Assembly: GCA_028286905.1 (NCBI GenBank)
Contig: JAQBQP010000002.1
Location: 383,430-447,429 of the forward strand
DNA length: 64,000 bases
Origin: Candidatus Doudnabacteria bacterium
GTDB taxonomy: Bacteria; Patescibacteriota; Doudnabacteria; UBA920; VMFF01
Reading direction: 5' to 3'
Shown: positions 28,022 to 63,877 of the stretch, in pieces
Numbering within the stretch: the first letter of the stretch is position 1
Layout: each line of letters opens with the position of its first letter
The notes under the pieces: model-generated
Told to the model about the DNA's origin: nothing
Databases searched by the model: none
The model's input: only the letters and a program-made list of their open reading frames with translations
Made by a program: the position numbers and the translations under genes

Positions 28022-28066
28022 TGAGTAAAAACAGTTAATAATATTTTAATAATGGAAAGTTATAAT

Positions 28067-28099
28067 AAAATCGCTTCATAGGCGATTTTTTGCTAAGAT
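28067..28099 (+). promoter_or_regulatory. Conserved terminator-hairpin / extended -10 module (AAAATCGC-loop-GCGATTTTTTGCTAAGAT) upstream of the methyltransferase gene
   Basis: Same ATCGCC/GGCGAT-T-tract-TGnTA module as at 50320, 53328 and 61523. Confidence 0.5.
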
Positions 28100-28126
28100 A
28101 AAGGGGTATATTAAGACAAAAAATAA

Positions 28127-31513: not shown

Positions 31514-31559
31514 ATTCCTATAAGTTTAGGCTTATTATTAAGTTGTTAATGTAATTATA

Positions 31560-32882: not shown

Positions 32883-32904
32883 ACACACATTAAGCCGCAC
32901 ACAA

Positions 32905-32944
32905 GGATATATAGCAAGCGGGGCTATAGTGGATAAATATAGAC
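32905..32944 (+). repeat. About 31 bp conserved site, copy 1 (TATATAGCAAGCGGGGCTATAGTGGATAAATAT), between the divergent recombinase and HEPN-like genes
   Basis: 29 of 31 positions identical to 41335-41370 on the same strand. Confidence 0.7.
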
Positions 32945-32986
32945 AAAAAACTCTCTGTTTTTGCTTATATTTGTTAAAATACTGCC

Positions 32987-41761: not shown

Positions 41762-42202
41762 TTAGATACCAGAAACAGTTGGGTATTCGTAAAGACTTTT
41801 AGCTATTCCATCATAATACTTTTTAAAGTATTTATTATCCCGTTCGATGTCCCATTCTTTTAAGTACGTGAAAAAACCAAATTCTCCTTGCTCACAAAGT
41901 TCCTTTACAGCACTCAACATGTTTTCCAGTGTTACCTTTTCCAAAACAATCATTCCAGGAGCAGCCTCAAATGGGTGATGGATATCGGCGTTGCGTTTTA
42001 AGGATAGCTCTAAATTATTAATATCATAAAATGTAACCTGGTAACACTTACCGTTTTGAAGCTCTACCAAAACAAACTGAATCCAACCGTTCTCTTTTAC
42101 CTCAGCGGCCATTCTATCATCAAAACCGCCATAAAATTTTAATTTTGGCCAAACGTCATTTTGATTTAAGGTCAGAGGATGGGGTAAATTTAAGTCCTTC
42201 AT
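41762..42202 (-). CDS. Small protein downstream of RHS-2; candidate cognate immunity protein
   Basis: 146 aa whose start overlaps the 3' end of RHS-2 by about 47 nt, the overlap typical of toxin-immunity pairs. Confidence 0.55.
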   Translation of the reverse strand: MKDLNLPHPLTLNQNDVWPKLKFYGGFDDRMAAEVKENGWIQFVLVELQNGKCYQVTFYDINNLELSLKRNADIHHPFEAAPGMIVLEKVTLENMLSAVKELCEQGEFGFFTYLKEWDIERDNKYFKKYYDGIAKSLYEYPTVSGI

Positions 42203-50128: not shown

Positions 50129-50271
50129 TGTTGCTTTCGCTTTCAATCCGCTTTGAATCACTATTGAAAATCCGCATAGAAAGCGACCTATCCGGGTCAT
50201 TTCCCTATTTGGAAATATCCCCAAATACCCCTTATAATCCGTCTATATTCCTGGGACTGGACCGGCCCCTC

Positions 50272-50309
50272 CAGCCAGACCAAACACGTTCCCCGCTGAC
50301 CTAGCGGGG
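50272..50309 (+). repeat. att-like direct repeat, copy 2
   Basis: CAGCCAGACCAAACACGTTCCCCGCTGACCTAGCGGGG, followed directly by the ATCGCC hairpin module. Confidence 0.8.
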
Positions 50310-50319
50310 TTAAAAAAAT

Positions 50320-50352
50320 AAAATCGCCGAAGAGGCGATTTTTTGTTATGCT
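50320..50352 (+). promoter_or_regulatory. Terminator hairpin / extended -10 module (AAAATCGCCGAAGAGGCGATTTTTTGTTATGCT)
   Basis: Conserved module also at 28067, 53328, 61523, and weaker at 51703, 52414 and 63878. Confidence 0.55.
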
Positions 50353-50409
50353 AGATATGTATTAATGTCAACTTTAAAACCTGCAGATCAGCGGCTCTTC
50401 TGAAAATGA

Positions 50410-50943
50410 ATGAACAATATGGATGTGCTTCAAATCTTAAATACAATTTTTACCGGTTTTACTGTAATAGTGGCTATTATTGCAGTTATTTTGGCGTTTA
50501 AAATAGGGCAAAAACAAAATGAAATAAATAACCGGCTCTTATCCCTTCAAGATTACGTTGCGATATCTTTTATCCCTGATTCCCGCAACGGTGTTATAAA
50601 ATTACTCAACACTGGAAAATCAAATTTGTATTTGTGGGGGTTTGATTGGAGTTTTAATTCCGCTAATAACAACTATCACTATGAAAAAGCAAGGCTCATA
50701 AGCGCAGGCACAAACGACTCTTCGTACTATTGGATTCCTCTTCCAAAAAATATTGATAAAATTTCTACCACAACCAATTTTGATATCAAACTTTATTTAG
50801 AAGATGACTATGGAAATAAATGGGTTTCGGAGGGGGGAGGTGAGGCAAATCCAATAAAAATTATGAGCGATGAAAAAGAAGTTCCCGCCGCTGCAATTAC
50901 CATATGGTCTTATAAAACTTATAAAGATAAGTGGTCATTTTAA
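50410..50943 (+). CDS. Hypothetical membrane-anchored protein (cassette 1)
   Basis: 177 aa with one N-terminal transmembrane helix; AT-rich. Confidence 0.55.
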   Translation: MNNMDVLQILNTIFTGFTVIVAIIAVILAFKIGQKQNEINNRLLSLQDYVAISFIPDSRNGVIKLLNTGKSNLYLWGFDWSFNSANNNYHYEKARLISAGTNDSSYYWIPLPKNIDKISTTTNFDIKLYLEDDYGNKWVSEGGGEANPIKIMSDEKEVPAAAITIWSYKTYKDKWSF

Positions 50944-50980
50944 AACGGTATGGCGGACAAGCTGCCTCACTCTAATCAAA

Positions 50981-51012
50981 GTTCCAACTTCGTCCCATGT
51001 CCGCGGCCAATT
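50981..51012 (+). repeat. Cassette-junction motif copy M1 (GTTCCAACTTCGTCCCATGTCCGCGGCCAATTGA)
   Basis: One of nine same-orientation copies of a roughly 33 bp intergenic motif. Confidence 0.75.
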
Positions 51013-51093
51013 GACAAATACCATTAAATATGGTATTTTTTTATATTCAAGTTAAATTGGAGGATAACCCTTTCATCACAATGGAGTTTCGAC

Positions 51094-51588
51094 ATGCGTA
51101 TCTCTCGGAACAGTCTTGCCTACCGCATAGCCTTCGCCTTTGAGGACGAGAAACCCTCCCAGGTCGGGCTCTGCGAGCTTTGCTGGAGCGTCATTCTTAG
51201 CCCTATGGCACTCTTGTTCCACGGCGCGAAGATGGCGTGGCTGTACTTCTGGGGCCTTTTCATCGCTTGCAAACCAATCGGTACTGAAACGCGTTACGTC
51301 GGGCGATCATATGCGTCCCCCGATGGGTACGCCAAGATGACCCTCTGGGAGACCTACCCCCGGTGGCCGAAGATCCACGGAATCGTGACTCGTCCGGTGT
51401 ACCTGATCGGCGCGCTCGGCGGACTGGTCTTCCTCTACGTCACCTGGAAGATCCTCATCGGCATCGGCGCCTTCATGCTTCTGCTATTCTCGATTACCGC
51501 AGGAGTCGAAGGTTTGGAGAAACTCTACAACGGTCTCTACAACGCAGCCAACAGGAAAGGGCTGTGCCCGGTGGTGGAAGTGAAATGA
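51094..51588 (+). CDS. Hypothetical polytopic membrane protein in a GC-rich cassette
   Basis: 164 aa with about 4 transmembrane helices; local GC is about 58%, against about 38% in adjacent units. Confidence 0.5.
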   Translation: MRISRNSLAYRIAFAFEDEKPSQVGLCELCWSVILSPMALLFHGAKMAWLYFWGLFIACKPIGTETRYVGRSYASPDGYAKMTLWETYPRWPKIHGIVTRPVYLIGALGGLVFLYVTWKILIGIGAFMLLLFSITAGVEGLEKLYNGLYNAANRKGLCPVVEVK

Positions 51589-51611
51589 AGCAACGCTTCA
51601 ATGCGTGCAGA

Positions 51612-51645
51612 AAGCGCGGTGCCCCAAGGTGCCGCGCTTTTCTGA
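51612..51645 (+). terminator. Intrinsic terminator
   Basis: AAAGCGCGGTGCC-CCAA-GGTGCCGCGCTTTTCTG. Confidence 0.65.
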
Positions 51646-51664
51646 TAAATTTTTTACAATTGTC

Positions 51665-51698
51665 CTTCCAACTTCGTCCCATGTCCGCAGCCAATACT
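51665..51698 (+). repeat. Cassette-junction motif copy M2
   Basis: CTTCCAACTTCGTCCCATGTCCGCAGCCAATAC, followed by a weak hairpin and TGTTATACT. Confidence 0.75.
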
Positions 51699-51753
51699 TT
51701 TAATCGCCTAATAAGCGGTTTTTTGTTATACTTAGAACAATTAAATGACAATA

Positions 51754-52307
51754 TGAAAAAACTATTTTTATCAATCTTTGCCTTAGGATTAATCGGAGCG
51801 GGTTGCAACCAACAAACTGCTACGCCCACAACAAATAATCAACCTGAAAAAACCGTCTCCATCCCGGCTAGCAACACAACCACTTATGACGCTAAAGATT
51901 TTCAATTTCAAATATCTTACCCTAAAGACTGGACCGTTACACCCGCATCGGAAGCAGACCATGTAAAAGTAGGTTATCAATTTTCAAACTTCAAAAACAA
52001 CGAAACAGACTTTTACACGCTTGTAGTGACCAAAGAGCCAAACACTTTTACTCAACTTACCGGGTCTACAAAAGTTAAGTTACCTAACGGAATGGATGCA
52101 ACAGAGTATGACAATAAGTACGATAACCGGGTTACCGAACAAGTATTCCATATTCAACAAACTGGCTACTATTACACCCTAAGCTTTCAAGTACACCACG
52201 CTATTCCTAGCGATGGTACGGTAAATCCACCAGCTTTAAGCGCAGAAGACCTAACTGTTAGAGATTCACTTATCGCTTCATTTAAAATGACAGCTTCTTC
52301 AAGGTAA
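51754..52307 (+). CDS. Lipoprotein
   Basis: MKKLFLSIFALGLIGAGC signal peptide with a lipobox. The long 51363-52307 ORF in the track is a read-through artefact crossing the junction motif. Confidence 0.65.
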
Positions 52308-52321
52308 CCTCGTTAACTTCT

Positions 52322-52355
52322 GTTCCAACTTCGTCCCACAATTGCAGCAATGACC
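52322..52355 (+). repeat. Cassette-junction motif copy M3 (variant 3' half)
   Basis: GTTCCAACTTCGTCCCACAATTGCAGCAATGACC. Confidence 0.7.
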
Positions 52356-52454
52356 TTCATCTGGGATGTTTGTGCGGGAGCGTCAGCGAAGGCAAAAATA
52401 CTTTTTCGAAACTAAAAAATCGTCTCCATGACGATTTTTTGATATACTCAGCTC

Positions 52455-53267
52455 ATGTCAGAAATTCCACATCTTGATAGAGCCATTGGCCTTCCTTCTT
52501 CTGAAAGTCATGCCCAGGAAGAGTACGAATCCCATATTAGAGAAATTTATGAAACCAGGGGCGTAAATCCTTATGAAAATTTTGAATTGCCTAAAACAGA
52601 ACGCGACAAAGAGATCATTGATTTTGTTCAACAATCTTTGGATCAGTATCTTGCTATTTATAATCGTGAAAAAATAGTGAGCGTACCTGTTTCTAAAATT
52701 CATATTTTTTCAGAGAATGGAGTCAAGGACTTCACGAATGGTAATGTAGAAAAAGGATCTGCAGCTATAAAATTTGGGAGTATGCTAGTAGAGAGGCCTG
52801 CTTCAGATATACAGTTTGCGCTTAACGTTTTTCATGAGATGGTTCATTTAAAGTCGTACTCAGCGGTTCAAATAGTCAACCAACCAGAGGGACTGGAAAT
52901 AATTAACTATCGTTCAGGTTTTTCAGTTACAAGTCGCGAGGGTAAAAATTTATATTTTCAAGATTTAGAAGAAGGAGTGATTGGATTTCTCGTAAGAAGA
53001 TTTTACCAAGAACATGTTCAAAATAATACGATATTCTCCGAAAAGAGAGCCATGTACAACTATTCCAGAGATGAGGAGTATGGGAAATTGGAAGCTCTGA
53101 TCCAGGATCTTTGGGAAAAGAATCAAGATAAATTCGAAAATATAAAATCAATTTGGGATATTTTTATTAATACACAGTTGAATGGGAATTTATTACCAAT
53201 TGGTCGCTTAATTGAATCTACCTATGGTAAAGGATCATTTCGCAAACTAGGTGAAAATAATTTATAA
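52455..53267 (+). CDS. Hypothetical protein with HExxH motif (putative zinc metallopeptidase)
   Basis: 270 aa with the VFHEMVHLKSY motif. It is preceded by the AAAAAATCGTCTCCATGACGATTTTTTGATATACT module; the -10 ends about 7 nt before the ATG, so the mRNA may be leaderless. Confidence 0.5.
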   Translation: MSEIPHLDRAIGLPSSESHAQEEYESHIREIYETRGVNPYENFELPKTERDKEIIDFVQQSLDQYLAIYNREKIVSVPVSKIHIFSENGVKDFTNGNVEKGSAAIKFGSMLVERPASDIQFALNVFHEMVHLKSYSAVQIVNQPEGLEIINYRSGFSVTSREGKNLYFQDLEEGVIGFLVRRFYQEHVQNNTIFSEKRAMYNYSRDEEYGKLEALIQDLWEKNQDKFENIKSIWDIFINTQLNGNLLPIGRLIESTYGKGSFRKLGENNL

Positions 53268-53291
53268 TTATTTATTAATTGATCTATTTCA

Positions 53292-53327
53292 GTTTCCGAC
53301 TTCGTCCCCCAATCGCAGCCAGAAATT
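53292..53327 (+). repeat. Cassette-junction motif copy M4
   Basis: GTTTCCGACTTCGTCCCCCAATCGCAGCCAGAAATT, followed by the ATCGCC hairpin and TGTTAAACT (53328-53358). Confidence 0.75.
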
Positions 53328-53384
53328 AAATCGCCGAGCAGGCGATTTTTTGTTAAACTTAATATGTAATTAAGCAGAGCATTT

Positions 53385-53870
53385 ATGAAAAACATCAAAA
53401 CCAATCCCGCACTAAAGGATCTTGAATTACTTATTGGACATTGGACAACAGAGCTATCGAACGCTTCGTTTCTCAATGACCGATCAGCTGTCCTACAAGG
53501 CAATGCCTCTTTCGAATGGTTTGGGGACGGAGATTTTCTGGTTTTATACCAAGGGACAAAAAATGTCGATGCGGCGTGGGCGACATGGATTATCGGCCGA
53601 GATCAAGACACATCGGACTACACTATTCTTTATTTTGACGATCGACGTTTTTCTCGTGTCTACGAAATGAGCTTTAAAAAAGGCGTTTGGAAAATATGGC
53701 GTAATTCTCCAAAATTTATACAAAGCTTTAAGGGCGTAATAAGTAAGGATAAAAAAACAATCACGGGGCGCTGGAGAAAATCATCTGACGGAAAGCGTTG
53801 GGAACACGATTTTGATTTAGTCTATAAAAGAGTTAGCACAAAAAAGAAATTAACGTCAAAAAAGAGATAG
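53385..53870 (+). CDS. Hypothetical protein
   Basis: 161 aa soluble protein with a Lys-rich C-terminal tail. Confidence 0.55.
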   Translation: MKNIKTNPALKDLELLIGHWTTELSNASFLNDRSAVLQGNASFEWFGDGDFLVLYQGTKNVDAAWATWIIGRDQDTSDYTILYFDDRRFSRVYEMSFKKGVWKIWRNSPKFIQSFKGVISKDKKTITGRWRKSSDGKRWEHDFDLVYKRVSTKKKLTSKKR

Positions 53871-53911
53871 TCTTTTTTACCTCCATGTGCTTTATTAGAT
53901 CCGAGCTAACC

Positions 53912-53945
53912 GTTCCAACTTCGTCCCATCTCCGCAGCCAATACC
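53912..53945 (+). repeat. Cassette-junction motif copy M5
   Basis: GTTCCAACTTCGTCCCATCTCCGCAGCCAATACC. Confidence 0.75.
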
Positions 53946-54067
53946 GCTAGATCTAAGCCAAGCCGCTTGATTGTCGTAAAGATAGGTCTGTGCTAAAATT
54001 CTCGCAGTATTAGAAGGAGGAGTTCAAGCAGACAATATCCCCTCCTTAGCCCTTAACTAAGACCACA

Positions 54068-55156
54068 ATGCCTGAGAGATTTTTCGGAGATTTTCACGAT
54101 CAAAAGAACCCCATCAATCCAGAGAAAGTTGAGACTCACCATCGAATGGTTGTAGAATCCGCTCTAGAAGGACCTGAGGGCGAACATGCTCAATTGAGTA
54201 TCGCCTTAGATCAAGATGGCGTAGCCCGTAGGGTCAACTTCTGGGATCTGGATAAGACCTTGCTCCGAGCTGAACCGATACACGCTGTGGCTGTTACGGA
54301 GATCTTCCCGCACGTTCAGGATGTTGATGAACTGCGAAAGATCTACTTTGCAGGTTTCAAACTCGGCAATTCATTTCGAGAATGGGACCGGATGCACCGT
54401 ATTTACACTGAGGGTCAAAACCGCTTCAAGGACCCACAAGTGTACTTCGACGAAGTGATCGCAGCGGACAGCGAACGCCGCAAGGTAGACGAAGAAGGAA
54501 ACCCAACGCACGAGCGAGCTAACGACACGCTTCAGCGTTATGGCAAGATCGCCTATCAGCTCATGGCTGATCGACGGACTCAGGAAACCGAGGAAGGAAC
54601 ACCAAGCTTTTTCGAGAGCAACGGATTCCAACTGGAAGCCGCAGTACATCTGCTCCGCGCAAAATCGCGTATGGGCGAGGTTCATGTTTTTATGACCGCG
54701 AACCAGCAAGATTTCGCTCGGGCGTTAGTAGCGTTCTCTGGCTTATACAAGCATGGAATGTTCTTGGCCACAGATGAAACAATGGTTGGAGGCGGTAAAG
54801 ATATCGCGATCTTGAAGCTCATCGCGCAAATCGAGGCTCAAGGGATAAAGGTTCCTCGACACGACAAGCGTAGACTCGTAGTCTACGGCGACTCAGCTAC
54901 TGGAGATATCGGTAGCAGCAGCAAGATTACCGCTGCACATCCTGAGTTTCAATTCTCGGGCGGGCTGGTCACCGATGATCTTGCAGGAGTAGAAGACTGG
55001 AAACGCAAGATCAAGGAAGAAGAAGGTCTTCCCGAAGCCAAGCAACAGTTGACCGGAATATTTCGCACTGTCGACACCATCACACTTCCCAACGAAGACA
55101 TCGCTCGAAGCGAACGCGGAGTGCACAAGCTCGGTAAGAAACGTTCCCAGGTTTAG
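54068..55156 (+). CDS. HAD-superfamily hydrolase-like protein (GC-rich cassette)
   Basis: 362 aa with HAD motif I FWDLDKTLL and motif IV VYGDSATGD. The segment 54.0-58.6 kb has about 55% GC. Confidence 0.5.
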   Translation: MPERFFGDFHDQKNPINPEKVETHHRMVVESALEGPEGEHAQLSIALDQDGVARRVNFWDLDKTLLRAEPIHAVAVTEIFPHVQDVDELRKIYFAGFKLGNSFREWDRMHRIYTEGQNRFKDPQVYFDEVIAADSERRKVDEEGNPTHERANDTLQRYGKIAYQLMADRRTQETEEGTPSFFESNGFQLEAAVHLLRAKSRMGEVHVFMTANQQDFARALVAFSGLYKHGMFLATDETMVGGGKDIAILKLIAQIEAQGIKVPRHDKRRLVVYGDSATGDIGSSSKITAAHPEFQFSGGLVTDDLAGVEDWKRKIKEEEGLPEAKQQLTGIFRTVDTITLPNEDIARSERGVHKLGKKRSQV

Positions 55157-55241
55157 GTATTGAACTGTATAAGAACAACTTTACAACCGGCGGTCTCCAT
55201 TAGGAAACTGCCGGTTGTTGTTTTTCATGTTCTCTAATAAT

Positions 55242-55275
55242 AGTTCCAACTTCGCCCATGTCCGCAGCCAATACC
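55242..55275 (+). repeat. Cassette-junction motif copy M6 (inside the GC-rich segment)
   Basis: GTTCCAACTTCGCCCATGTCCGCAGCCAATACCA. Confidence 0.75.
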
Positions 55276-55339
55276 AGAACTCAAATGTCGCCGAAGCACG
55301 CAGCAATGACCATAATTGGATTCACAAAAAATATGTTAA

Positions 55340-55527
55340 GATTTTGAAGATGAAATAACTTTAGGCCAGCTTGGTGCTTTACCCTATCCTGAATTGCATC
55401 AATTTACAAAAGAATATTCTAAACGTGTCAGCGAAGAAGCTCATATCTGGCTACGTGAAAAGGGAATGAAAATACAGATCTTTACAGTCAAATATCCTAC
55501 TGCTATACTCAGGCATAACTTGAATGA
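55340..55527 (+). pseudogene. Possible gene remnant (ORF fragment lacking a start codon)
   Basis: A 62-codon open frame ...LGQLGALPYPELHQFTKEYSKRVSEEAHIWLREKGMKIQIFTVKYPTAILRHNLNEDE* that begins right after a stop, with no ATG/GTG/TTG near its start; AT-rich DNA embedded in the GC-rich segment. Confidence 0.2.
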
Positions 55528-55563
55528 GGACGAATAAAAACCACCTTCTCAGAGAGGCGTAAA

Positions 55564-57558
55564 ATGAAGAAACGCTCTCCGAACGGTGGAGCGCTTAGTA
55601 TTAGAGAGGTGTTGGCCACCCAGACGGAGTTGGAACTGATAAATCGTTTCCTAGGCGGCGAAGAACGCGCCTTTCAGGAACTTGTTGAGCGTTATCAGAC
55701 TAGACTTCTGAACTTCATCTATCGCACAATCGGCGACAGAGAGAAGGCGGAAGACCTTGTCCAAGAAACGTTCATACGAATTTACCGCCATCTGCATCGC
55801 TTTGACCGCGACAAGAAGTTTTCGACTTGGGCCTACACGATCGCATCGAACCTGGCGAAGAACGAACTCCGAAATCGTTCGCGGAATCCGCTCGTCCTAT
55901 TTCAGACAATCCAAGGAAATTGGGAAGATGAGGATCGGCCTCTGCAATTCGAAGATACCCAAGCACGCCCAGACGACATGTTCAACAAACGTCATCTTCG
56001 CGAGTTGGTTGACGATGCAGTAGCCTTACTCCCCGTGCATCACCGCTCTGTGTTCATAATGCGAGAGTTGGAGGGCAAGAGCTATGAAGAGATTGCCGAC
56101 GAAACCGACACAAACCTTGGGACAGTGAAGTCCAGGTTGAACCGGGCTAGGAACGCTTTCGCAGAACTGATCGAAGATCATATCGAGCAAGAGGAATTTT
56201 CACAGTCCAAACCCCTCCCTCCCAACGGAGCGCTGACAATGCCCATAGAAACGGCTATCAGACCTACTCAGCCCTCCGCAAACGGAACGGCTCCGGATGG
56301 TCTTAGGGACACACTGCGAGGTGTGTTCATGTGGTGGCTGGATTTGGAGAACGCGCATATCGTTTTTCAGATTCTGAAACCGCCGAAGAAGTTCGACGAT
56401 TTCGCAAACATTTTTTCGCAAATCCGCGCCGAAATTTGGCAAAGAAATGCGAAAAGAGCTTTGCCGCCAACGTCCCTGATGACGAAGGCGCTGCCCGTGA
56501 TAAAGCAGATTGCGGAGCGAGCCAAGCAGATGCGACTCCCGAATGTTCCCGCCGTACCCGGAAGCGAGCCTGAAACACTCCAACCCCCCGACAACGATAT
56601 GAGCGGTAAATATTCCGGAAGCAACAACCGTCGGCGCGTCGAGAGTGAGTCAGCCGTCGTCAAGCGGCCCCAGACCAAGGACGAACTGGAACACGAAAAA
56701 GCGCGGATCCGCGCTAAGCTCGTCGAATACCTGGGCAGACCGGCGAACTGGGAAGTTCTTCAGAGCACCACCTACTCGCATTTCTGCAAATCAGCCGGAA
56801 TGAGTCTGGCGCGCAATGAATTCAACATCATGTTCTCCGAAGTCAACGCCGAGCTCAAGCAGCTAAGAAGAACGGTGCGCGCGGCATCGACGAACGGTTC
56901 TGCGCCGCACGTTGAGCCCGCTAGTTCTGTCGTTGGCATAATCGCGCCGGCGACACCAGCTGTACCAATCGCGCTCGTAACACCACCATCGCCGGCAAAC
57001 ACTTCAGCCAACACGACAATGCCAGCAAAGATCGTCTGGCTAGCTGAGAATGGTAAGCATGGTCAGATGTACGCCGCCGACAGAATTCAGTTGGAATCCA
57101 TGCTCAGCAAGTTGCTAGTCGCCGAGCCTACGATCACCGTGCAAAAGGCCTACTCTCACCTGAAACCTCCGGTGAGTGAGGTTACTTTCAAGAAGCACTT
57201 CGCGGCTGCACAGTCACGTCTTGCCCCTTCGGCGGATGCCGAAGAAGTTGTAGCAACGGAAGCGCTTCCGGTCTTCGAACCCGAAGCAGCGGCCGAGACA
57301 ACAAAGGCAGAAGTGCCGACAATTGCCGAAGTCACTTCGGCCACGACGATCGAAGCCGCAGAGCCAGCAACGACGGTCGAAGATGCGCCAGCAAAGCAGG
57401 CTCGCAAGAGCATTCGGCTTCGTAGCGATGAAGTGTTCTTCCGAGCCGTACCGAACGATGATGGTACTTGGGCAGTAGAACAGCACTACCGGAGCCTGGA
57501 CGCCCTGACCATGCTAAAGATGTTGGAGCTGGCCGCCCAGCTTATGACCCAGGCGTAA
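55564..57558 (+). CDS. ECF-type sigma-70 family factor with a roughly 460 aa Ala/Pro/Thr-rich C-terminal extension
   Basis: N-terminal sigma region 2 (LVERYQTRLLNFIYRTIGDREKAEDLVQETFIRIY) and region 4 (RELEGKSYEEIADETDTNLGTVKSRLNRAR); about 58% GC. Confidence 0.8.
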   Translation: MKKRSPNGGALSIREVLATQTELELINRFLGGEERAFQELVERYQTRLLNFIYRTIGDREKAEDLVQETFIRIYRHLHRFDRDKKFSTWAYTIASNLAKNELRNRSRNPLVLFQTIQGNWEDEDRPLQFEDTQARPDDMFNKRHLRELVDDAVALLPVHHRSVFIMRELEGKSYEEIADETDTNLGTVKSRLNRARNAFAELIEDHIEQEEFSQSKPLPPNGALTMPIETAIRPTQPSANGTAPDGLRDTLRGVFMWWLDLENAHIVFQILKPPKKFDDFANIFSQIRAEIWQRNAKRALPPTSLMTKALPVIKQIAERAKQMRLPNVPAVPGSEPETLQPPDNDMSGKYSGSNNRRRVESESAVVKRPQTKDELEHEKARIRAKLVEYLGRPANWEVLQSTTYSHFCKSAGMSLARNEFNIMFSEVNAELKQLRRTVRAASTNGSAPHVEPASSVVGIIAPATPAVPIALVTPPSPANTSANTTMPAKIVWLAENGKHGQMYAADRIQLESMLSKLLVAEPTITVQKAYSHLKPPVSEVTFKKHFAAAQSRLAPSADAEEVVATEALPVFEPEAAAETTKAEVPTIAEVTSATTIEAAEPATTVEDAPAKQARKSIRLRSDEVFFRAVPNDDGTWAVEQHYRSLDALTMLKMLELAAQLMTQA

Positions 57559-57596
57559 ACAAACAACCCAAAGGAGAAACAGGAGAAAAACGAAAA

Positions 57597-57633
57597 CTCC
57601 GGCACCGATCTAATCGATGTCGGAGTTTTTTTC
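57597..57633 (+). terminator. Intrinsic terminator after the sigma-factor gene
   Basis: CTCCGGCACCGATCTAATCGATGTCGGAG followed by TTTTTTTC. Confidence 0.65.
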
Positions 57634-57708
57634 TTAATAACGCTTTGGCGTGCATGGACTCAACTGCACTAAAGAAGCTTAAAAAAATATTCAGTAAAAA
57701 AACAAAGC

Positions 57709-57749
57709 ACCGCGGTATACTTCGACAATTTGTCGAAGTATACCGCGGT
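57709..57749. terminator. Perfect 41 bp palindrome (20 bp arms) between convergent genes
   Basis: ACCGCGGTATACTTCGACAA-T-TTGTCGAAGTATACCGCGGT, with a T-tract on the minus-strand side. Confidence 0.6.
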
Positions 57750-57754
57750 AGCGC

Positions 57755-58618
57755 TTAGCAGGACGCCCTGGCCCTTTGGTGGGATGAGCGTTTTCTTCTT
57801 TCCTCCGTTCTTTTGATTTCCCCTTTCGTCGCCGGACGCGGGAAGCTTGGCACTTCCTGCTGGAACGACCAGATCGTTTCCGCGAATCCGGTCAGATTGT
57901 ACACTCGCGAGGCGACCGAGCGAGCCTGCCCTTTGAATGCACCAACAACGGCATGAACCATACCGGCCGTCAGCTCTTCACAGGACGCCTTCATAAGCGA
58001 CCCACTGAAGCTCTGCTGAACGACATAGCGAACTTCACGTTCGTTCAGAAAGTCACGCCCTGGGACATACAGAACGTCCAGATCGCCTTCGAACGAACCG
58101 TCATAGCCGCCGCAGATCGCATCGTCAACGAGCTGAGCGTTGACGGAAAGCCGCTTCAGCGAAATGACACGCGAGCCCTGCTTCGGCCTGAACTGCGCTG
58201 GCAGCGTACCCCACTGACCAACAGCACGACCCTGATCGTGAGGCGTGCGAACTTCCGCGTGCACGCCGACCAGCCGATCGCCAATCTCCCCCCTGGAGAG
58301 GCGGACGATGGACTTGGCCAGCCGATCATTGGTATCGTCAGGCCTTACCATCTGAACGAAGCTGATGAAGCTCCGGTTGTCGACAACGAAGCCAGAGGAG
58401 TCTGGCCAGGCCGTCAGAGAGACGTTGACCATGTACTGGTCGTCCTCGACGTCTGAACCAATACGCCCCCTCGTATCTCGAGAGACTGGAAAGTCCTTCA
58501 AGTACAAGGTCACCGGCGCAGAACCTTTTGGTTGCACTGCAACCTCCAGTTGAAAGTGATCGCCTAAGCTTTGGCGATATAGAAGAGTAGCATATAACTG
58601 CCCTTTTTTCAAGTTCAA
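57755..58618 (-). CDS. Hypothetical protein (GC-rich cassette)
   Basis: 287 aa ORF at about 58% GC, convergent with the sigma-factor gene. Many overlapping ORFs in this region are GC-driven artefacts. Confidence 0.5.
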   Translation of the reverse strand: MNLKKGQLYATLLYRQSLGDHFQLEVAVQPKGSAPVTLYLKDFPVSRDTRGRIGSDVEDDQYMVNVSLTAWPDSSGFVVDNRSFISFVQMVRPDDTNDRLAKSIVRLSRGEIGDRLVGVHAEVRTPHDQGRAVGQWGTLPAQFRPKQGSRVISLKRLSVNAQLVDDAICGGYDGSFEGDLDVLYVPGRDFLNEREVRYVVQQSFSGSLMKASCEELTAGMVHAVVGAFKGQARSVASRVYNLTGFAETIWSFQQEVPSFPRPATKGEIKRTEERRKRSSHQRARASC

Positions 58619-58635
58619 GTGTGTTGGTAAAAACA

Positions 58636-58660
58636 GTTCGATTTTTTGTTATACTTTATA
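58636..58660 (+). promoter_or_regulatory. Right half of the hairpin/extended -10 module (CAGTTCGATTTTTTGTTATACTTTATAT) followed by an orphan ATG and junction motif M7
   Basis: Module order is inverted relative to the other junctions: module, then ATG, then motif. Confidence 0.4.
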
Positions 58661-58680
58661 TATGAAACCGACACTAAACT

Positions 58681-58707
58681 TGTTCCAACTTCGCCCATGT
58701 CCGCAGC
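58681..58707 (+). repeat. Cassette-junction motif copy M7 (3'-truncated)
   Basis: GTTCCAACTTCGCCCATGTCCGCAGCA, after which similarity ends. Confidence 0.7.
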
Positions 58708-58777
58708 ATAAAAAAAGTACACCGCTATCATGATGTACTTTTTATTTCACTTACTTTTTGTAAAAGTTAATCAATAC

Positions 58778-59545
58778 CTAACCTAATTTTGTAATAGCTG
58801 TTTCCATTTCATCTAACATATATTGTCCCTCTGTCGGGTATTCTGCCAACGCTTTTTGAAATAGCGGAAAGTAGATTTCTCTTGTTTCAGCAACAATTCT
58901 TCGCTGCTTTTCAGGGGTTGTTCCAGCCAAACTTCTTAAATTGTGCAGCCTGTCAGCCATTTTAGCTAATATAGTTTTTGCAGGAGCGTTGCTCAAGTTT
59001 TCAATATAAAAATGATGGGCTTCTGCTTTAGTCTTTAATTCTTGTCCATCAACTTTTGGCTTTGTCAAAGTGATAACTATGTCAGCAACCTGTGAATTGA
59101 AAACCTTCCTCAAGCGAAACTCAGCAACCTCTTTCCATTTAGAGTAAGCTTGGGTTGCATTTCCAAACATAGCTGAATCTTCAACTGAATCATGTAAAAG
59201 ACATGCGATAATTAAATCTGGATCTTTAATTTTGCACTCATCAATTAAAATTAAGGCTACCGCTCTTAAGTGTTCAAAGTAACGCTCACCGGTATCACGC
59301 TCATGCGGGCGATGAGCTTCTTTACCCAAATCGTAAGCAAAATCAATTGTATTGATGACTTCTATTGGCAAGCCTTCTAATCTTTTGAGAAAGCTAGCTC
59401 GATTTTCCAATTCTACTTTTTCGTATTCTGCTTCAACCGGATTACTAATGCGCGCGGCCTCCTCATCTTCTATAAAAGGATGGTTTATTTCCTTGCCCTC
59501 CCCCGCTGATTGAGCCGCGAGTCTTGCCTCAATATTTTGATCCAT
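58778..59545 (-). CDS. HD-domain (p)ppGpp hydrolase-like protein (RelA/SpoT hydrolase-domain-only, small alarmone hydrolase type)
   Basis: 255 aa with HD motifs RYFEHLRAVALIL, LLHDSVEDS and MADRLHNLRSL as in the SpoT hydrolase domain; no synthetase domain. Confidence 0.7.
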   Translation of the reverse strand: MDQNIEARLAAQSAGEGKEINHPFIEDEEAARISNPVEAEYEKVELENRASFLKRLEGLPIEVINTIDFAYDLGKEAHRPHERDTGERYFEHLRAVALILIDECKIKDPDLIIACLLHDSVEDSAMFGNATQAYSKWKEVAEFRLRKVFNSQVADIVITLTKPKVDGQELKTKAEAHHFYIENLSNAPAKTILAKMADRLHNLRSLAGTTPEKQRRIVAETREIYFPLFQKALAEYPTEGQYMLDEMETAITKLG

Positions 59546-59667
59546 ACTTGTAAGTTAATTTATACAATTATTATAGCTTTTTTTGAATCTACGTGCTAAC
59601 CTTCGCCTTTATAACCTCAAGCAGTATTTTAATCGCCTCTAAGGCTATTTTTTGATATAGTTTAGAC

Positions 59668-60138
59668 ATGAATGAAAATAGAGAAAATCAGCGAGAAATA
59701 GGGACCAATCCTTTCTGGGTTCGGCCAAACCCAGAAAAGGAGCAAGGAGAAATTCAAAGGGCTGTTCAAGAATTTCTGAAAGTACAGCCCAGTGGAGAGG
59801 TACTCCAACAAGTTATCGATCAGATTAATATATCTCCAATTGTTGATCTTGCCGATGATACCTGGAGCCTTTTGGAAAACACAGACTCTTACGACATCAG
59901 ACCAGGATTTCTAGAAGATGCTGAAAACCTAACTGAAGAATATAATTCCCAATTATCTGTAGAAAATAAGCGTAACTTTAAAGCATTGGTTCAAGGCTTT
60001 AAAAGAAACCAACCGATGGAAGTCCCTATAATCATAAAAAGTAATGATCGACTTCATTTACTGAGCGGTAATACTCGCCTTATGATTTCGAGAGCGTTAT
60101 CCATTAAACCGAAGGTTATTATTGCAGAGCTTCCATAA
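59668..60138 (+). CDS. Hypothetical protein
   Basis: 156 aa acidic soluble protein. Confidence 0.5.
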   Translation: MNENRENQREIGTNPFWVRPNPEKEQGEIQRAVQEFLKVQPSGEVLQQVIDQINISPIVDLADDTWSLLENTDSYDIRPGFLEDAENLTEEYNSQLSVENKRNFKALVQGFKRNQPMEVPIIIKSNDRLHLLSGNTRLMISRALSIKPKVIIAELP

Positions 60139-60230
60139 TTTCCGCTCTAGCGCAGTTTTCTGTTTCATCTATATGATTTGGATATGAATGAAAGCCCTCT
60201 CATGAGGTTCCTTGCGTTAAATTTATAAGC

Positions 60231-60686
60231 TTATGAGTACGTACTGATAAGTAATAAAAAGAATATTAGTCCATTCAATGTAATCAAGGCTGTCCTAATC
60301 CAATGAGTTTCTCTCAATCGTTTCATTAATGGACTGGTTGAACTTTGATGCTCAGCACTTATTTTTCTCTCCCAGCGTCCCCACATACTCCCTGTAAGCA
60401 CAAGGATCATATATTGAATTAATACAGCGAGCAAAAGTAATGGGAAGAGAATTTTTGCAGGATGCACCCAAAGCAGTATGGTACTACAAAGTACCAATAT
60501 TCCCGTTGGAATAAATACCAAATACGGTAGTACCCTCCAATGAACGCCCCGGACCTTATGGAATAACTCAGTATCGTCAACCACCATCCATGAGCGCAAT
60601 GTTATTAACTCCATGGACCAGATCAGGCCAATCCCGTAAAACGAGAGCGCTCCGCAAAGCAAAAATAAGATATTAGGGAAATGCAT
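60231..60686 (-). CDS. Hypothetical membrane protein (4 transmembrane helices)
   Basis: 151 aa hydrophobic ORF. Confidence 0.5.
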   Translation of the reverse strand: MHFPNILFLLCGALSFYGIGLIWSMELITLRSWMVVDDTELFHKVRGVHWRVLPYLVFIPTGILVLCSTILLWVHPAKILFPLLLLAVLIQYMILVLTGSMWGRWERKISAEHQSSTSPLMKRLRETHWIRTALITLNGLIFFLLLISTYS

Positions 60687-60715
60687 AATATTTTTTTATT
60701 ATTTCTTTAGATTTC

Positions 60716-61180
60716 TTATACTACTAGCGCAACAAGAAGCGAAAAACCTCCGACCAGTAATACCACTTCGCGTATCCAGGAGAAGATGAGCCACAATCTT
60801 GTACCCGTAATGATTTCTGTGGACGAAGGAACGAATGTTCCGGCCTTACCCCATTCAATAATCTTTGGAGCCAGGTATGCTCCGCTTAAAATTGCTGTAA
60901 CTATATAGCAGATTCCGGCAAGAAGAATGAGCATACGTCGCTCAGGATTGTTCCAATTGAGCACTAACGCCGTCACCATTACAAGAACTGTCGCAACTTG
61001 CAGGGCAATCCAGAAGTTTTTTTCCATCGTACCATTTTGATTTATCTTCCCAAACGACACAGGAGGATTCGCAAACCACGTGGGCATGACAACAATGCTT
61101 TGGTACATTCCTATACCGACAACCGTTACCAAAAGAAAGCTAGCAATAATTAGAACCAAACTTGCAGGTGTAAAATTCAT
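60716..61180 (-). CDS. Hypothetical membrane protein (DUF1772-like, 4 transmembrane helices)
   Basis: 154 aa; adjacent to and co-oriented with the 60231-60686 gene. Confidence 0.5.
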   Translation of the reverse strand: MNFTPASLVLIIASFLLVTVVGIGMYQSIVVMPTWFANPPVSFGKINQNGTMEKNFWIALQVATVLVMVTALVLNWNNPERRMLILLAGICYIVTAILSGAYLAPKIIEWGKAGTFVPSSTEIITGTRLWLIFSWIREVVLLVGGFSLLVALVV

Positions 61181-61488
61181 ATTCGTGTCATATTAAGATT
61201 AAAATTTGACACTTGTCGAGAGAAAAGCAAAAGAGCAGACTCTCTATCAAGCATCTTTCAAACACAAAAATATCTCTAGAGTATATCCAGTGTTTGAAAG
61301 AACTGCGATTCGGAGTTTTGCTCCTAGATAGAGAATCTACTCTTAAAACGTAAGTGAGTATATTCTTTTCAGAAATTTCCTAAAAGGGAATTTCCTAGAT
61401 CAGTTCTTATTTATATAATACGCTGATAATGGTAAAAACTCAAGTAACCACAATACTGTGGCTACTTATAGTACTCGTCAAATAAAAA

Positions 61489-61522
61489 GTTCTAACATTG
61501 TCCTATGTTTGCAGCCATACTC
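61489..61522 (+). repeat. Cassette-junction motif copy M8 (degenerate)
   Basis: GTTCTAACATTGTCCTATGTTTGCAGCCATACTC, followed by hairpin TACTCGCCCCTTAGGCGGTTTTTT and TGTTATGCT (61523-61553). Confidence 0.6.
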
Positions 61523-61560
61523 TACTCGCCCCTTAGGCGGTTTTTTGTTATGCTTTAAAT

Positions 61561-62124
61561 ATGTTTTACGATATAGGCATAGGAATTTTATTGTCGTTGG
61601 GTTTAGCAAATCTTTTCGATACACACTTAACTGCAAGTTGGATTATTTTAGGAGTGGTCTTCTCTCTTATTCCGGACTTGGATTATTTGTTTCATCTCCA
61701 AAAAGGAGGCTCAACAAAAAATGCTCACGAACATAGGGACTACTGGCACTACCCAGTGGTATTTATTCCATTTGGCATGTTGCTTATTGCTCTACTTGCC
61801 AATTGGCATTACGCTGTTCTTTTTCTTTTTGCCACCCTGCTTCATTTTATCCACGATAGCATCGGGATCGGATGGGGTGTACAATGGCTCTATCCTTTTA
61901 ACTCAAACCATTATTCTTTTTTCTACCACTACGAACCTAGCGACAGAAGACTAGCTCGAAAAAATCTTTACATTTGGAACCATGATGAAATAAATACGTT
62001 ATCAAAGAAACATGGAGACGACGAATGGGTAAAAAATATTTATTTTAAATTACATCCTTATGGACTAATTGAATACGCTGTTTTTATAATAGCGCTTGTG
62101 ATACTAATTTTTGTTATTGGCTAA
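61561..62124 (+). CDS. Membrane-bound metal-dependent hydrolase (YdjM/DUF457-like)
   Basis: 187 aa with several transmembrane helices and His-rich motifs (HEHRDYWHYP, HFIHDSIGIGWGVQW). Confidence 0.55.
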   Translation: MFYDIGIGILLSLGLANLFDTHLTASWIILGVVFSLIPDLDYLFHLQKGGSTKNAHEHRDYWHYPVVFIPFGMLLIALLANWHYAVLFLFATLLHFIHDSIGIGWGVQWLYPFNSNHYSFFYHYEPSDRRLARKNLYIWNHDEINTLSKKHGDDEWVKNIYFKLHPYGLIEYAVFIIALVILIFVIG

Positions 62125-62127
62125 AAT

Positions 62128-62160
62128 CGTTCCCGCTTCGTCCGATGTGGCCAGTCTAAA
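62128..62160 (+). repeat. Cassette-junction motif copy M9 (degenerate)
   Basis: CGTTCCCGCTTCGTCCGATGTGGCCAGTCTAAA. Confidence 0.55.
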
Positions 62161-62237
62161 AACGAAAGAATACCGAACCCAAACAAATTTGAAATCTTTG
62201 TCAAAGTACTTCAACAGGAAATTAACGGCCTTAACTT

Positions 62238-62834
62238 ATGCCCAGTATATATACCCAAATTGCATATTTGTCTTGGAACGCAATACTCTTGGTTTGGCTG
62301 CCCGGTTATTTTACGGGTAAACGCACCATACAAAGACCAAATCCAATTCGCCGAGCCTTTGCATTCGCATTGATAATTGCCGGATTTATGTTTTTGTTTT
62401 CCAATTCTGGACCTGGAAATTCTTTTGCAGAACGCTTTCTAGCTGTCCCCCATCTTTTTATTACTCCCTCTACGGTACCTTTCGGCATAATCGGCCTCAT
62501 CATTGACCTCACAGCCATAGTCTTTGCGATATGGGCACGTATAGCCTTAGGCAGAAATTGGTCTAATGCCATCGCACTAAAAGAAAACCATGAACTAGTA
62601 CAGACCGGACCATATGCTATAGTTAGACATCCAATTTATACTGGCTTGGTATTCGCAGCATTTGGTACCGCCTTGACCATAGGCAGACTTACTGACTACA
62701 TTGGTGTCATACTACTGTTAGTAGCAATTCTTATTCGGATTCAAGATGAAGATGCGCTTATGGCCGAACAGTTTTCAGAATCGCATCCTGCATATAGACA
62801 ACGGACTAAAAAATTGGTTCCGTTTGTTTGGTAA
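62238..62834 (+). CDS. Isoprenylcysteine carboxyl methyltransferase (ICMT/PEMT) family membrane methyltransferase
   Basis: 198 aa with the GPYAIVRHPIYTG signature and about 5 transmembrane helices. Confidence 0.8.
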   Translation: MPSIYTQIAYLSWNAILLVWLPGYFTGKRTIQRPNPIRRAFAFALIIAGFMFLFSNSGPGNSFAERFLAVPHLFITPSTVPFGIIGLIIDLTAIVFAIWARIALGRNWSNAIALKENHELVQTGPYAIVRHPIYTGLVFAAFGTALTIGRLTDYIGVILLLVAILIRIQDEDALMAEQFSESHPAYRQRTKKLVPFVW

Positions 62835-62913
62835 ACATGAATTCCAGGAACCCTGCTTGGCTTTGGAGTTGGAACCTACACGTAGGAAGAATTTTATCTG
62901 TAATAACAAAACG

Positions 62914-63219
62914 ATGAATAAATCAATTTCCAGTGGTACGGTACATACATTACCCAATGATATACGCACAGCTTTAGCTTCGGACAAGGCTGCACTAGAA
63001 GCATGGGAGGATATCAGCCCACTTGCTCGCAATGAATGGATTTGCTGGGTCACATTCGTTAAAAAAGATGCAACTAGAAAAGAGCATCTCAAAAGATTAA
63101 TAAGCGAACTCAAGGAAGGGATGCGAAGGCCTTGTTGCTGGCTAGGTTGTATCCATCGTAAAGATAAGCCTATGAGCGCTTCTGTGCAGTATGTGCTCAA
63201 CAGACAATCAAAAAATTAA
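62914..63219 (+). CDS. YdeI/OmpD-associated family protein
   Basis: MNKSISSGTVHTLPNDIRTALASDKAALEAWEDISPLARNEWICWVTFVKKDATRKEHLKRLISELKEG matches the YdeI family. The ORF-track start at 62746 overlaps the upstream gene, so the Met at 62914 is preferred. Confidence 0.65.
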   Translation: MNKSISSGTVHTLPNDIRTALASDKAALEAWEDISPLARNEWICWVTFVKKDATRKEHLKRLISELKEGMRRPCCWLGCIHRKDKPMSASVQYVLNRQSKN

Positions 63220-63234
63220 AATAATATTATACAT

Positions 63235-63396
63235 ATGATAAAAGGAAATTTTCTTGGTGCAGCAATTATTGCGATAATATACACGGTTTATATTTTAATG
63301 AATCCTAGTGTGGCGACATCAAAACCAACATTCGTTGCAATATTAGTAATTCTCAATGCCTTAACTATAGTGTTGATGTATTATGCGTTTAAATAA
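63235..63396 (+). CDS. Possible small membrane protein (53 aa)
   Basis: ATG at 63235 to TAA at 63396 with two hydrophobic helices; below the ORF-track size cutoff. Confidence 0.3.
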   Translation: MIKGNFLGAAIIAIIYTVYILMNPSVATSKPTFVAILVILNALTIVLMYYAFK

Positions 63397-63418
63397 AAGC
63401 GATTGTTAAAATATTTGT

Positions 63419-63868
63419 ATGGATATAAATACATCTTTAATTACCGCTACGAAATGTCCTGAATGTGGTGCTGTTTCTAATTTAAGCTGTTGGGAAATGC
63501 TCGGTGTAATTTGTTCTTGGGAATGGGCGGATCGTGATCTACAAAAAGAACATTTTCTTATTGTTGCGTCTTACAACCTTCAACACCCCGCCAAATTTGT
63601 CGACGAAGCGATTAAGGGTCTACAAATAGCCTTAATTGATTATTTAGATCACGGCATCTCTCCCGAAGAAATACGCCGCAGAACGTCGAGAGCGTACGAA
63701 GGAAATAAGAAAGTTTTGAAAAACGATCAGAACGTTACCTTACGATTAAGAAACTGGCCGGTGACAATAGATAATATCTACGCAAACGGAGATCTAATTG
63801 ATGCTGCCACTCGTGTAAAAAAATGGGGACAATCCATCAAAGAAGAACTTCTCAAAGATGCCCAGTAA
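63419..63868 (+). CDS. Hypothetical protein
   Basis: 149 aa soluble ORF with an N-terminal CxxC. Confidence 0.5.
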   Translation: MDINTSLITATKCPECGAVSNLSCWEMLGVICSWEWADRDLQKEHFLIVASYNLQHPAKFVDEAIKGLQIALIDYLDHGISPEEIRRRTSRAYEGNKKVLKNDQNVTLRLRNWPVTIDNIYANGDLIDAATRVKKWGQSIKEELLKDAQ

Positions 63869-63877
63869 TAATATCAA

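Follow-up and report, generated by a model that had tools for sequence, protein, structure and literature searches.

Did a gene once stand between the promoter and the repeat that now adjoin each other at 58639-58747 of the present stretch of DNA and, if so, how was it lost? The stretch, referred to below as the window, comprises 64 kb of a metagenome-assembled genome of Candidatus Doudnabacteria, with a GC content of about 38%. Housekeeping operons, including ATP synthase and FtsW- and MraY-type genes, fill its first part (1-27 kb), while an array of short genes, mainly on the plus strand, runs from 50.3 kb past the window end as far as the minus-strand dnaX gene at about 72 kb. Two short elements recur between the array genes, namely a 32-nt repeat (motif A) and a hairpin combined with a promoter (module B). 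At the motif copy termed M7, a promoter, a start codon and the repeat follow each other with no gene between them. It is moderately probable, judging from sequence comparison, that the 58639-58747 unit is the remnant of a leaderless cassette of the DUF1579 family that lost its coding body. This reading is supported by the spacing of 6 nt between promoter and ATG, a DUF1579-like N-terminus, an intact counterpart in a Parcubacteria contig (L032) and the recurrence of part of the arrangement in a second sample (L014).

A promoter and six codons without a gene

Module B has the consensus AATCGCC-loop-GGCGATTTTTTGTTATACT, in which the T-run of an intrinsic-terminator hairpin is overlapped by an extended -10 promoter. 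Seven full copies lie in the array (50316-63874) and one further copy adjoins tRNA-Gln at 28065. The copy at 52419 carries a compensatory stem change (ATCGTC/GACGAT), which supports a real hairpin. At the M7 unit, the promoter half (58639-58661) is 73-88% identical to seven other modules (repeat family D3), its part at 58639-58655 reading CGATTTTTTGTTATACT. A profile of the module aligns 58639-58667 by model positions 21-49 only (E = 0.0022), so that the left arm of the hairpin is absent at this site. A second profile, built from nine copies of motif A, matches 58682-58712 (model positions 1-32) at 27.3 bits (E = 2.6e-7). The sequence-only reading of this locus, in which a half module and an ATG run into motif M7 with no gene body present, is partly borne out by the sequence and by both profiles.

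An assembly chimera at a repeat or composition boundary would also account for such a junction. The GC content changes sharply near 58555-58600 (it falls from 0.57 to 0.35 over 58500-58600), the region contains repeats, and a break at 61311 is seen when the sample is assembled differently. However, a single 33-kb contig in the Logan assembly of SRR13312974 spans the junction, and L014, a 940-nt contig from an independent Joint Genome Institute (JGI) metagenome, is 98.5% identical to window positions 57727-58669. L014 also has the neighbouring 287-aa gene, the half module and ATGAAACC, including the first codons of the stub that begins at the ATG, and the extended -10 is intact in both samples. 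Because of these two contigs, the 58639-58747 arrangement is not considered an assembly artefact, and a chimera is highly improbable. The break in the Logan assembly of SRR13312974 lies in non-coding sequence (61311-61340) before the motif copy at 61489, with one contig ending and the next beginning there, and hints at strain heterogeneity in that part of the array.

The sequence that follows the promoter resembles the beginning of a gene. In most cassettes of the array, the start codon is preceded at a distance of 6-40 nt by a TGnTATACT promoter belonging to the cassette itself. The ATG at 58662 lies exactly 6 nt past the -10, as it does at the leaderless cassette starts at 52455, 59668 and 61561; two ATGs that follow modules at 50356 and 53363 lie 4 nt past the -10 and lead straight into stop codons. 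The N-termini of DUF1579 proteins are conserved as ...NP[AST]L[KQ][DE]L..., with several homologues having NPTL and one beginning MNPSLK. Among the 1823 ATGs of the window, M[KN]P[AST]L[KNQ] is encoded at 58662 alone, and the stub ranks fourth of 1823 by a position-specific scoring matrix of 115 DUF1579 homologues. At the nucleotide level, AAACCGACACTAAAC matches AATCCCGCACTAAAG of the intact DUF1579-family cassette in the same array (53385-53870) at 11 of 15 positions, a score that is reached by three of the 1823 ATG contexts. The match between stub and DUF1579 has a p-value of about 0.002 uncorrected, or about 0.03 when corrected for an informal comparison with roughly a dozen gene families.

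The closest counterpart of the supposed ancestral cassette is found in the Parcubacteria contig L032, which carries an intact leaderless DUF1579 cassette (64% protein identity) with a copy of motif A at either end. The elements follow each other in the order motif A, CGATGATTTGATATAAT, CAGCTC, ATG AAT CCA ATG CTA..., the gene, TAG, 15 nt and again motif A. Like the M7 unit, this cassette has a promoter half without the left hairpin arm and a spacing of 6 nt from -10 to ATG. A search of homologous arrays for an intact cassette, proposed in the sequence-only reading, yielded a motif-bounded DUF1579 cassette in L032, but none at the M7 position itself. The associated claim that a cassette's coding sequence was deleted gains modest support from the DUF1579-like stub and its L032 counterpart; with a likeness this short, deletion is somewhat favoured as the explanation.

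The original cassette would have consisted of a leaderless DUF1579 gene with its own extended -10, followed by motif A and a terminator. An internal deletion would then have taken the gene from about codon 7 to a point at most 2 nt from the motif core, leaving the promoter, six codons, motif A and the terminator. The promoter, if still firing, would give a transcript of about 80 nt of no evident use. The 23-codon open reading frame (ORF) that now begins at the ATG is unlikely to be a real gene; the promoter-plus-motif units of L004, a Patescibacteria genome, contain no counterpart of it.

Several observations weigh against the loss of a DUF1579 gene and against a recombination event at the repeat. 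The likeness to DUF1579 spans 15-18 nt only, and K and N at motif positions one and five are unseen among the 115 homologues. Gene-less units composed of a promoter, 23-27 nt, motif A and a terminator occur twice in L004 and once in a further related locus, L010, without a recognisable remnant, and this arrangement may have a function or a systematic origin beyond a one-off deletion. No genome with an intact gene at the M7 position was found, and look-ups of three window proteins gave only SRR13312974. Other events also mark the M7 unit, which has a 60-nt segment inside its module and a GC-rich block without a motif before the module; its history is more complicated than a single deletion. In addition, motif A lacks the dyad symmetry typical of recombinase core sites.

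Motif A and its copy M7

Motif A has the consensus GTTCCAACTTCGTCCCATGTCCGCAGCCAATAC, with a core (GTTCCAACTTCGTCCC), a variable stretch and then GCAGC. Nine copies lie on the plus strand (Table 1), and a tenth, degenerate copy was seen by eye near 59587; the profile found no further copies over 74 kb. The sequence-only reading took M7 to be truncated after GCAGCA, which is not upheld. The core of M7 is whole and fills profile positions 1-32, and only a variable 6-nt tail is missing. This tail is CAATAC in M2, M5 and M6 and CAATTG in M1, is lacking in the remaining five copies, and GCAGCA is found in M3 as well. In M7, the position of the tail is occupied by the A-tract of the terminator at 58710-58747, which is predicted by folding to end both the stub transcript and that of the convergent HD-domain gene. 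Allowing up to three mismatches, the 26-nt M7 motif occurs only at 55244 and 58683, against 0.00 occurrences expected. M6 and M7 are identical over these 26 nt and have in common a 1-nt deletion that is found in no other copy; this deletion, in two copies that flank or follow GC-rich units, suits a common donor.

The sequence-only reading further held that all other junctions have a uniform order of gene, motif, hairpin with promoter, and ATG. This holds at about half of them. M2, M4 and, with a 65-nt insert, M3 follow this order, as do the degenerate copy near 59587 and the copy at 61489; M1 has a different hairpin, and M5, M6 and the copy at 62129 have none.

A role of the motif as a known RNA, gene or site received no support. 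Rfam 15 at gathering score returned no match in 50-64 kb and the related loci, except tRNAs and a LOOT RNA elsewhere, and ARAGORN calls neither a tRNA nor a tmRNA gene in the motif. The features required of a promoter for an extracytoplasmic function (ECF) sigma factor, of a dif site or of a coding sequence on either strand are, by eye, not conserved.

A disrupted module and the possibility that no gene was lost

The module before M7 was described in the sequence-only reading as the right half of a hairpin only. Although the left arm is indeed absent at the site, a whole hairpin of the module type lies at 58559-58578. The window contains three exact occurrences of ATCGCC-N4-9-GGCGAT, where 0.02 would be expected; besides this hairpin, they are the junction modules at 50323 and 53330. 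Because of this hairpin and of the CGAT found at both edges of the intervening segment, the module looks split by 60 nt and not halved. The hairpin likely sits within the 5' untranslated region (UTR) of the minus-strand 287-aa gene, whose start is probably GTG 58537 behind GGAGG. On the minus strand, the segment 58579-58638 could plausibly hold a promoter for this gene (TTGAAA, 17 nt, TGcTACTCT), although this is the author's reading and no such promoter appeared in the scan output.

Such disruption raises the possibility that no gene was ever present, the half module and its ATG being the edge of a module (ATATG is in its consensus) that was left by M7 upon insertion or rearrangement of the GC-rich block with the sigma-factor and 287-aa genes. 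The DUF1579 likeness would then be due to chance. The module is visibly disrupted, with its hairpin 60 nt away, and at 50356 and 53363, too, an ATG follows the -10 and is itself followed by stop codons, so that the ATG there is partly a module feature. A piece like the left arm of the module (TCGCCGAAG) and an M3-type tail (GCAGCAATGACC) also lie past M6 (55288-55311), and the 5' end of a minus-strand gene is common before motif copies (about six of 22 by the author's tally). However, the orphan ATGs at 50356 and 53363 have a spacing of 4 nt and not 6, the latter being specific to real leaderless starts. Further, the DUF1579-like codons reach 15 nt past the ATG, and the intact L032 cassette has the same layout. 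It is accordingly unlikely that no gene was ever present.

The fragments past M6 fall within 55284-55311, where what resembles the left arm and loop of the junction hairpin precedes the M3 tail, and at 55300-55540 an AT-rich patch carries a 47-codon ORF resembling a gene remnant. These fragments (55284-55540) are probably older junction debris.

Gene-less units as possible small transcription units

The gene-less units of L004 and L010 suggest either that cassettes frequently lose their genes in this manner or that such units serve a purpose. In the second case, the M7 unit could be a working small transcription unit, giving an RNA of about 80 nt or a 23-aa peptide that carries motif A. The motif would act as RNA (a shared 3'-UTR or small RNA), and the gene-less unit would be its stand-alone form, kept since the opposite-strand neighbour cannot transcribe the motif. 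The architecture is alike in both loci, with 26 and 23 nt from -10 to motif in the two L004 units compared with 26 nt at M7, and an intrinsic terminator lies at most 10 nt past the motif in eight of about 14 copies inspected by eye. The extended -10, as stated above, is intact in both samples, and the predicted folds of M7, L004b and L004c pair the spacer with the variable part of the motif.

On the other hand, the terminator precedes the motif in a further related contig, L015, where the next promoter overlaps the motif tail; the motif thus need not be transcribed. It shows no conservation of internal structure (the M7 transcript does not fold better than shuffles, z = -1.36), matches no Rfam family and has no complementary target in 74 kb. 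The spacer is not conserved between genomes (10 of 26 positions match), and the L004 units are without an ORF. An RNA role would also leave unexplained why genes of foreign composition are bounded by the motif and why the motif resembles tRNA-Gln. A functional small unit is therefore improbable, and a decayed DUF1579 cassette remains the preferred explanation of the M7 unit.

How the gene may have been deleted

Both the identity of the stub as a gene remnant and the role of motif A as a recombination site are inferred from sequence comparison. Motif-by-motif excision does not explain the scar, because the promoter would be lost along with the gene and one of the motifs. Two breaks are required, one shortly after the gene begins and one where the motif starts on its left side. 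The right-hand end of the deletion, at most 2 nt from the motif core, is suggestive of the recombination at or near the motif that was put forward in the sequence-only reading; it fits cleavage at the motif edge and equally an illegitimate deletion that survived only with an intact motif. CTAA is present in the stub and before other motif copies, making a microhomology-mediated deletion possible. Such a deletion, or another illegitimate one, explains the scar of this single case equally well.

The most far-reaching proposal is that motif A is the recombination site of an undescribed cassette-capture system in bacteria of the Candidate Phyla Radiation (CPR). This system would be integron-like and anchored at tRNA-Gln, with a recombinase encoded elsewhere, and would move single genes along with the terminator/promoter module, the M7 scar marking its cut. 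This proposal is speculative and rather doubtful. If the repeat were a recombination site, bacteria whose genomes are very small would have a way of acquiring genes that is distinct from classical integrons. The scar itself is ordinary gene decay and is of value as a marker of array organisation, in that it shows the promoter module and the repeat to be separable from the intervening gene and fixes one end of a deletion beside the repeat.

Association of motif A with tRNA-Gln

A displaced copy of the tRNA-Gln 3' end marks the start of the array. A near-identical direct repeat of at least 41 nt, comprising the tRNA-Gln 3' end and its flank, is found at 27978 and 50273, and about 130 nt can be aligned with gaps. 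Because 50273-50380 repeats the tRNA-Gln 3' end, the array appears to have directly followed tRNA-Gln, as it does in L004, before a 22-kb island was inserted. The intervening 22-kb segment encodes a C5 DNA methylase, a HATPase/Ymh protein, a large serine recombinase, two RHS/FG-GAP giants and a terminase-small-like helix-turn-helix protein. The giants (34796-41245 and 42156-49424, minus strand) are paralogues (2149 and 2422 aa) that show 45% identity over 1185 aa and have a 146-aa ORF between them; the 2422-aa protein, the only giant scanned with Pfam, has SpvB, FG-GAP and RHS repeats.

Motif A itself aligns to the 3' halves of tRNA-Gln with scores of 13-14, compared with 5-9 for tRNA-Thr and tRNA-Gly (p at most 0.004 from shuffles), although the identity is just 65-75% or so with gaps and the L004 copies are a poor fit to the tRNA-Gln of that genome. 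Divergence is greatest in the copies at the largest distance from the tRNA (61489 and 62129). The tRNA-Gln flank and the stretch to the left of the half module have 12 nt in common (GTAAAAACAGTT), a match that proved no better than shuffles.

Copies of the motif are found in Doudnabacteria, Parcubacteria and other Patescibacteria contigs, where the 16-nt core is kept and the right halves are locus-specific. The same gene family is found in motif-bounded cassettes of different genomes. Scans of genomes and metagenomes, made with one exact pattern each, gave L004, L006 and L010 as real relatives, the other matches being chance ones in GC-rich genes. No match to the strict pattern was obtained in viral contigs; the 16-nt core gave 16 single-copy matches there, whose flanks suggest chance occurrence inside coding sequence. 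A literature search found nothing on such arrays in Patescibacteria.

In the window, GC-rich segments (50-63% against 38%) are bounded by motif A at 51094-51588, 54068-55156 and 55540-58555, the last being the block of the sigma-factor and 287-aa genes. In L006, motif A stands exactly at the right edge of an island and abuts the ATG of the next host gene, while the start of the island after ruvB (GTCCCAGTCCGCA) resembles GTCCCACAACCGCA of the motif. This island (L006 620-5690) is 5 kb long, has a GC content of 42-57% in a host of 63-72% and follows ruvB directly; it encodes a large serine recombinase (34% identical to that of the window), a phage RepO-like protein and a DUF3592 protein. Since the motif is tRNA-Gln-like, the array starts beside tRNA-Gln and cassettes of foreign composition are motif-bounded, motif A is probably best read as an att-type junction. 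The array would then have grown at a tRNA-Gln hotspot by tandem accretion of small elements that integrated there, with an att-like repeat of tRNA origin kept at each junction.

Further structures were observed in the related loci. L015 holds a GC-rich (54%) array of small genes on the minus strand (2100-3000) with diverged motif copies (GGTTCCAAC ... CAGC); here the terminator lies before the motif, whose tail CAATTGAC gives the -35 of the next promoter. L010 (1505-1690, minus strand) and L004 (7029-7192) contain long, stable hairpin-like structures in which a strand resembling the tRNA-Gln 3' half, from T-loop to acceptor end, pairs with an upstream complement across an insert of 100-130 nt. 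These structures have no Rfam match and no ARAGORN call, and a 386-nt stretch of L010 that includes the structure folds with z = -4.7.

Recombinases

No recombinase was found beside any of the arrays, and none could be tied to motif A. About 50 of the larger ORFs of 1.3-74 kb were compared with Pfam (precomputed for L001), and some ten also with NCBIfam and PHROGs, without a match to Phage_integrase families. A single recombinase was seen, namely the large serine recombinase of the 22-kb segment (31560-33023, minus strand), a member of a very large CPR family with more than 8000 matches at E<1e-30, many of them about 60% identical. At three further homologue loci (L037, L039 and L043), the sole tRNA is tRNA-Gln, located 2.3-8.4 kb away with restriction-modification or defence genes between, and the recombinase is antisense to it, as in the window. 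These three loci have tRNA-Gln but no motif A, so that a link of the serine recombinase to the motif is unsupported. An all-against-all BLAST for a protein common to the arrays gave only cargo families and the serine recombinase.

By eye, AGTCCAGA(C) is shared upstream of three of the recombinase genes and AGACCGAGA downstream of two of the tRNAs, and these sequences may mark attachment sites. The LOOT RNA (RF03000) adjoins the serine recombinase in two of four loci, being downstream on the same strand in the window (31419-31532, minus strand, 75.7 bits) and upstream and divergent in L039 (9717-9836, minus strand, 93.3 bits).

Neighbouring genes and feature coordinates

The unit that ends at M7 carries a sigma-70/ECF-like protein, whose C-terminal extension of about 450 aa has no Pfam domain. 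A paralogue, also of ECF-type sigma-70, lies in the variable region at L001 7459-8277 (about 68.8-69.6 kb in window terms); the two are 58% identical over 205 aa. Between the sigma-factor gene and the convergent gene of the 287-aa protein lies a perfect inverted repeat of 20 bp with a 1-nt loop (57709-57749), which is probably a bidirectional terminator. Only two homologues of the 287-aa protein were found, the only distant one being carried by L015.

Table 1. Coordinates of the M7 unit, the surrounding array and related loci
Feature	Position	Strand	Remarks
tRNA-Gln(TTG)	27914-27988		3' end, terminator and junction module (27914-28134) recur 22 kb away (50240-50380)
Array start	50273-50380	+	Displaced copy of tRNA-Gln 3' end, its terminator and first junction module
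Motif A copies (nine)	50981, 51665, 52322, 53293, 53912, 55243, 58682, 61489, 62129	+	Tenth, degenerate copy near 59587
Intact DUF1579-family cassette	53385-53870	+	Homologues carry PF07617; N-terminus MKNIKTNPALKDLE; protein identical to NCBI protein JWO40_682; paralogue of the apparent source gene of the stub
Motif copy M6	55243-55274	+	Left boundary of the unit ending at M7
Sigma-70/ECF-like protein, 664 aa	55564-57558	+	Pfam Sigma70_r2 and r4_2; in GC-rich (50-63%) part of unit
287-aa GC-rich protein	57755-58618	-	No Pfam, NCBIfam or PHROGs match
Complete module-type hairpin	58559-58578	+	ATCGCC-TAAGCTTT-GGCGAT (ATCGCCTAAGCTTTGGCGAT); 60 nt left of promoter half
AT-rich 60-nt spacer between hairpin and promoter half	58579-58638		CGAT at both edges (58575-58578, 58639-58642)
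Promoter half of junction module	58639-58661	+	CGAT, T-run, extended -10 TGtTATACT (TGTTATACT; hexamer 58650-58655), 6-nt spacer TTATAT
Stub of putative lost leaderless gene	58662-58679	+	ATG AAA CCG ACA CTA AAC (MKPTLN); ATG then AAACCGACACTAAACTT
23-codon ORF	58662-58733	+	MKPTLNLFQLRPCPQHKKSTPLS then stop; runs from stub through motif into terminator; sole forward ORF; no gene body
Motif copy M7	58682-58708	+	GTTCCAACTTCGCCCATGTCCGCAGC (58682-58707) plus A; begins 20 nt after ATG 58662
Bidirectional intrinsic terminator	58710-58747		A-run, stem GTACA/TGTAC extended by A-U pairs, T-run; hairpin in minimum free energy and centroid folds
HD-domain (HD_4) gene of next unit	58778-59545	-	Pfam; convergent
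L004, Patescibacteria genome	Three motif copies directly after dnaX, tRNA-Gln		Order dnaX, tRNA-Gln, array
L006	One motif copy		
L010	Two motif copies		
L015	Diverged motif copies		
L032, Parcubacteria contig	Three motif copies		

Comparison with known systems

With regard to the M7 unit itself, its features agree with those of leaderless extended -10 cassettes decaying by internal deletion, in that the ATG lies 6 nt past TGnTATACT and the promoter and first codons are kept; there is nothing unusual in this. The array as a whole can be compared with three known systems.

Integrons are marked by attC sites with R''/L'' and L'/R' boxes (RYYYAAC ... GTTRRRY) and by promoterless cassettes under a common Pc promoter. 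The present array resembles sedentary integrons in its mostly unidirectional single-gene cassettes, the similar short repeats between them and the occurrence of decayed or empty cassettes. The functions encoded (DUF1579, OmdA, DUF1801 and glyoxalase-like neighbours in related loci) are also of a type typical of integron cassettes. However, no tyrosine recombinase of the IntI type was found beside the array among about 50 of the larger ORFs of 1.3-74 kb. The repeat lacks the imperfect palindrome of attC, and the predicted folds of the junctions contain the short terminator hairpin alone, without pairing over longer distances; GTTCCAAC, in the author's reading, has no complementary partner downstream. 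Further, the array cassettes carry their own promoters, several being leaderless, and the array is anchored at a tRNA gene.

Tandem arrays of integrated elements and integrase-less remnants at tRNA genes, known from genomic-islet accretion and from cis-mobilisable elements with flanking att repeats, are similar in several respects. The array begins at the displaced copy of the tRNA-Gln 3' end and its repeat is tRNA-Gln-like, the units vary in GC content, the copies are more diverged far from the tRNA, and a recombinase-bearing island lies beside the tRNA. It differs from such arrays in that its units are tiny (0.6-3.4 kb), mostly hold a single gene and never an integrase, and in that many of them share a standard terminator/promoter module. 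In addition, distant CPR genomes share the left 16 nt of the repeat (GTTCCAACTTCGTCCC), including those in which the local tRNA-Gln is different.

Composite staphylococcal cassette chromosome (SCC) islands at rlmH consist of tandem SCC and pseudo-SCC elements that are moved by large serine recombinases. By analogy, the present array could be likened to them in its tandem elements, its direct repeats of the integration-site sequence and the absence of a recombinase gene from some elements. A large serine recombinase is also located nearby, and the serine-recombinase island of L006 ends exactly at motif A. A difference is that the recombinase family of the window is found without motif A in three other loci, a link between enzyme and motif being unsupported. 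Overall, the array appears to have more in common with tRNA-linked tandem islets, some of whose members lack an integrase, and, by analogy, with composite SCC islands than with integrons.

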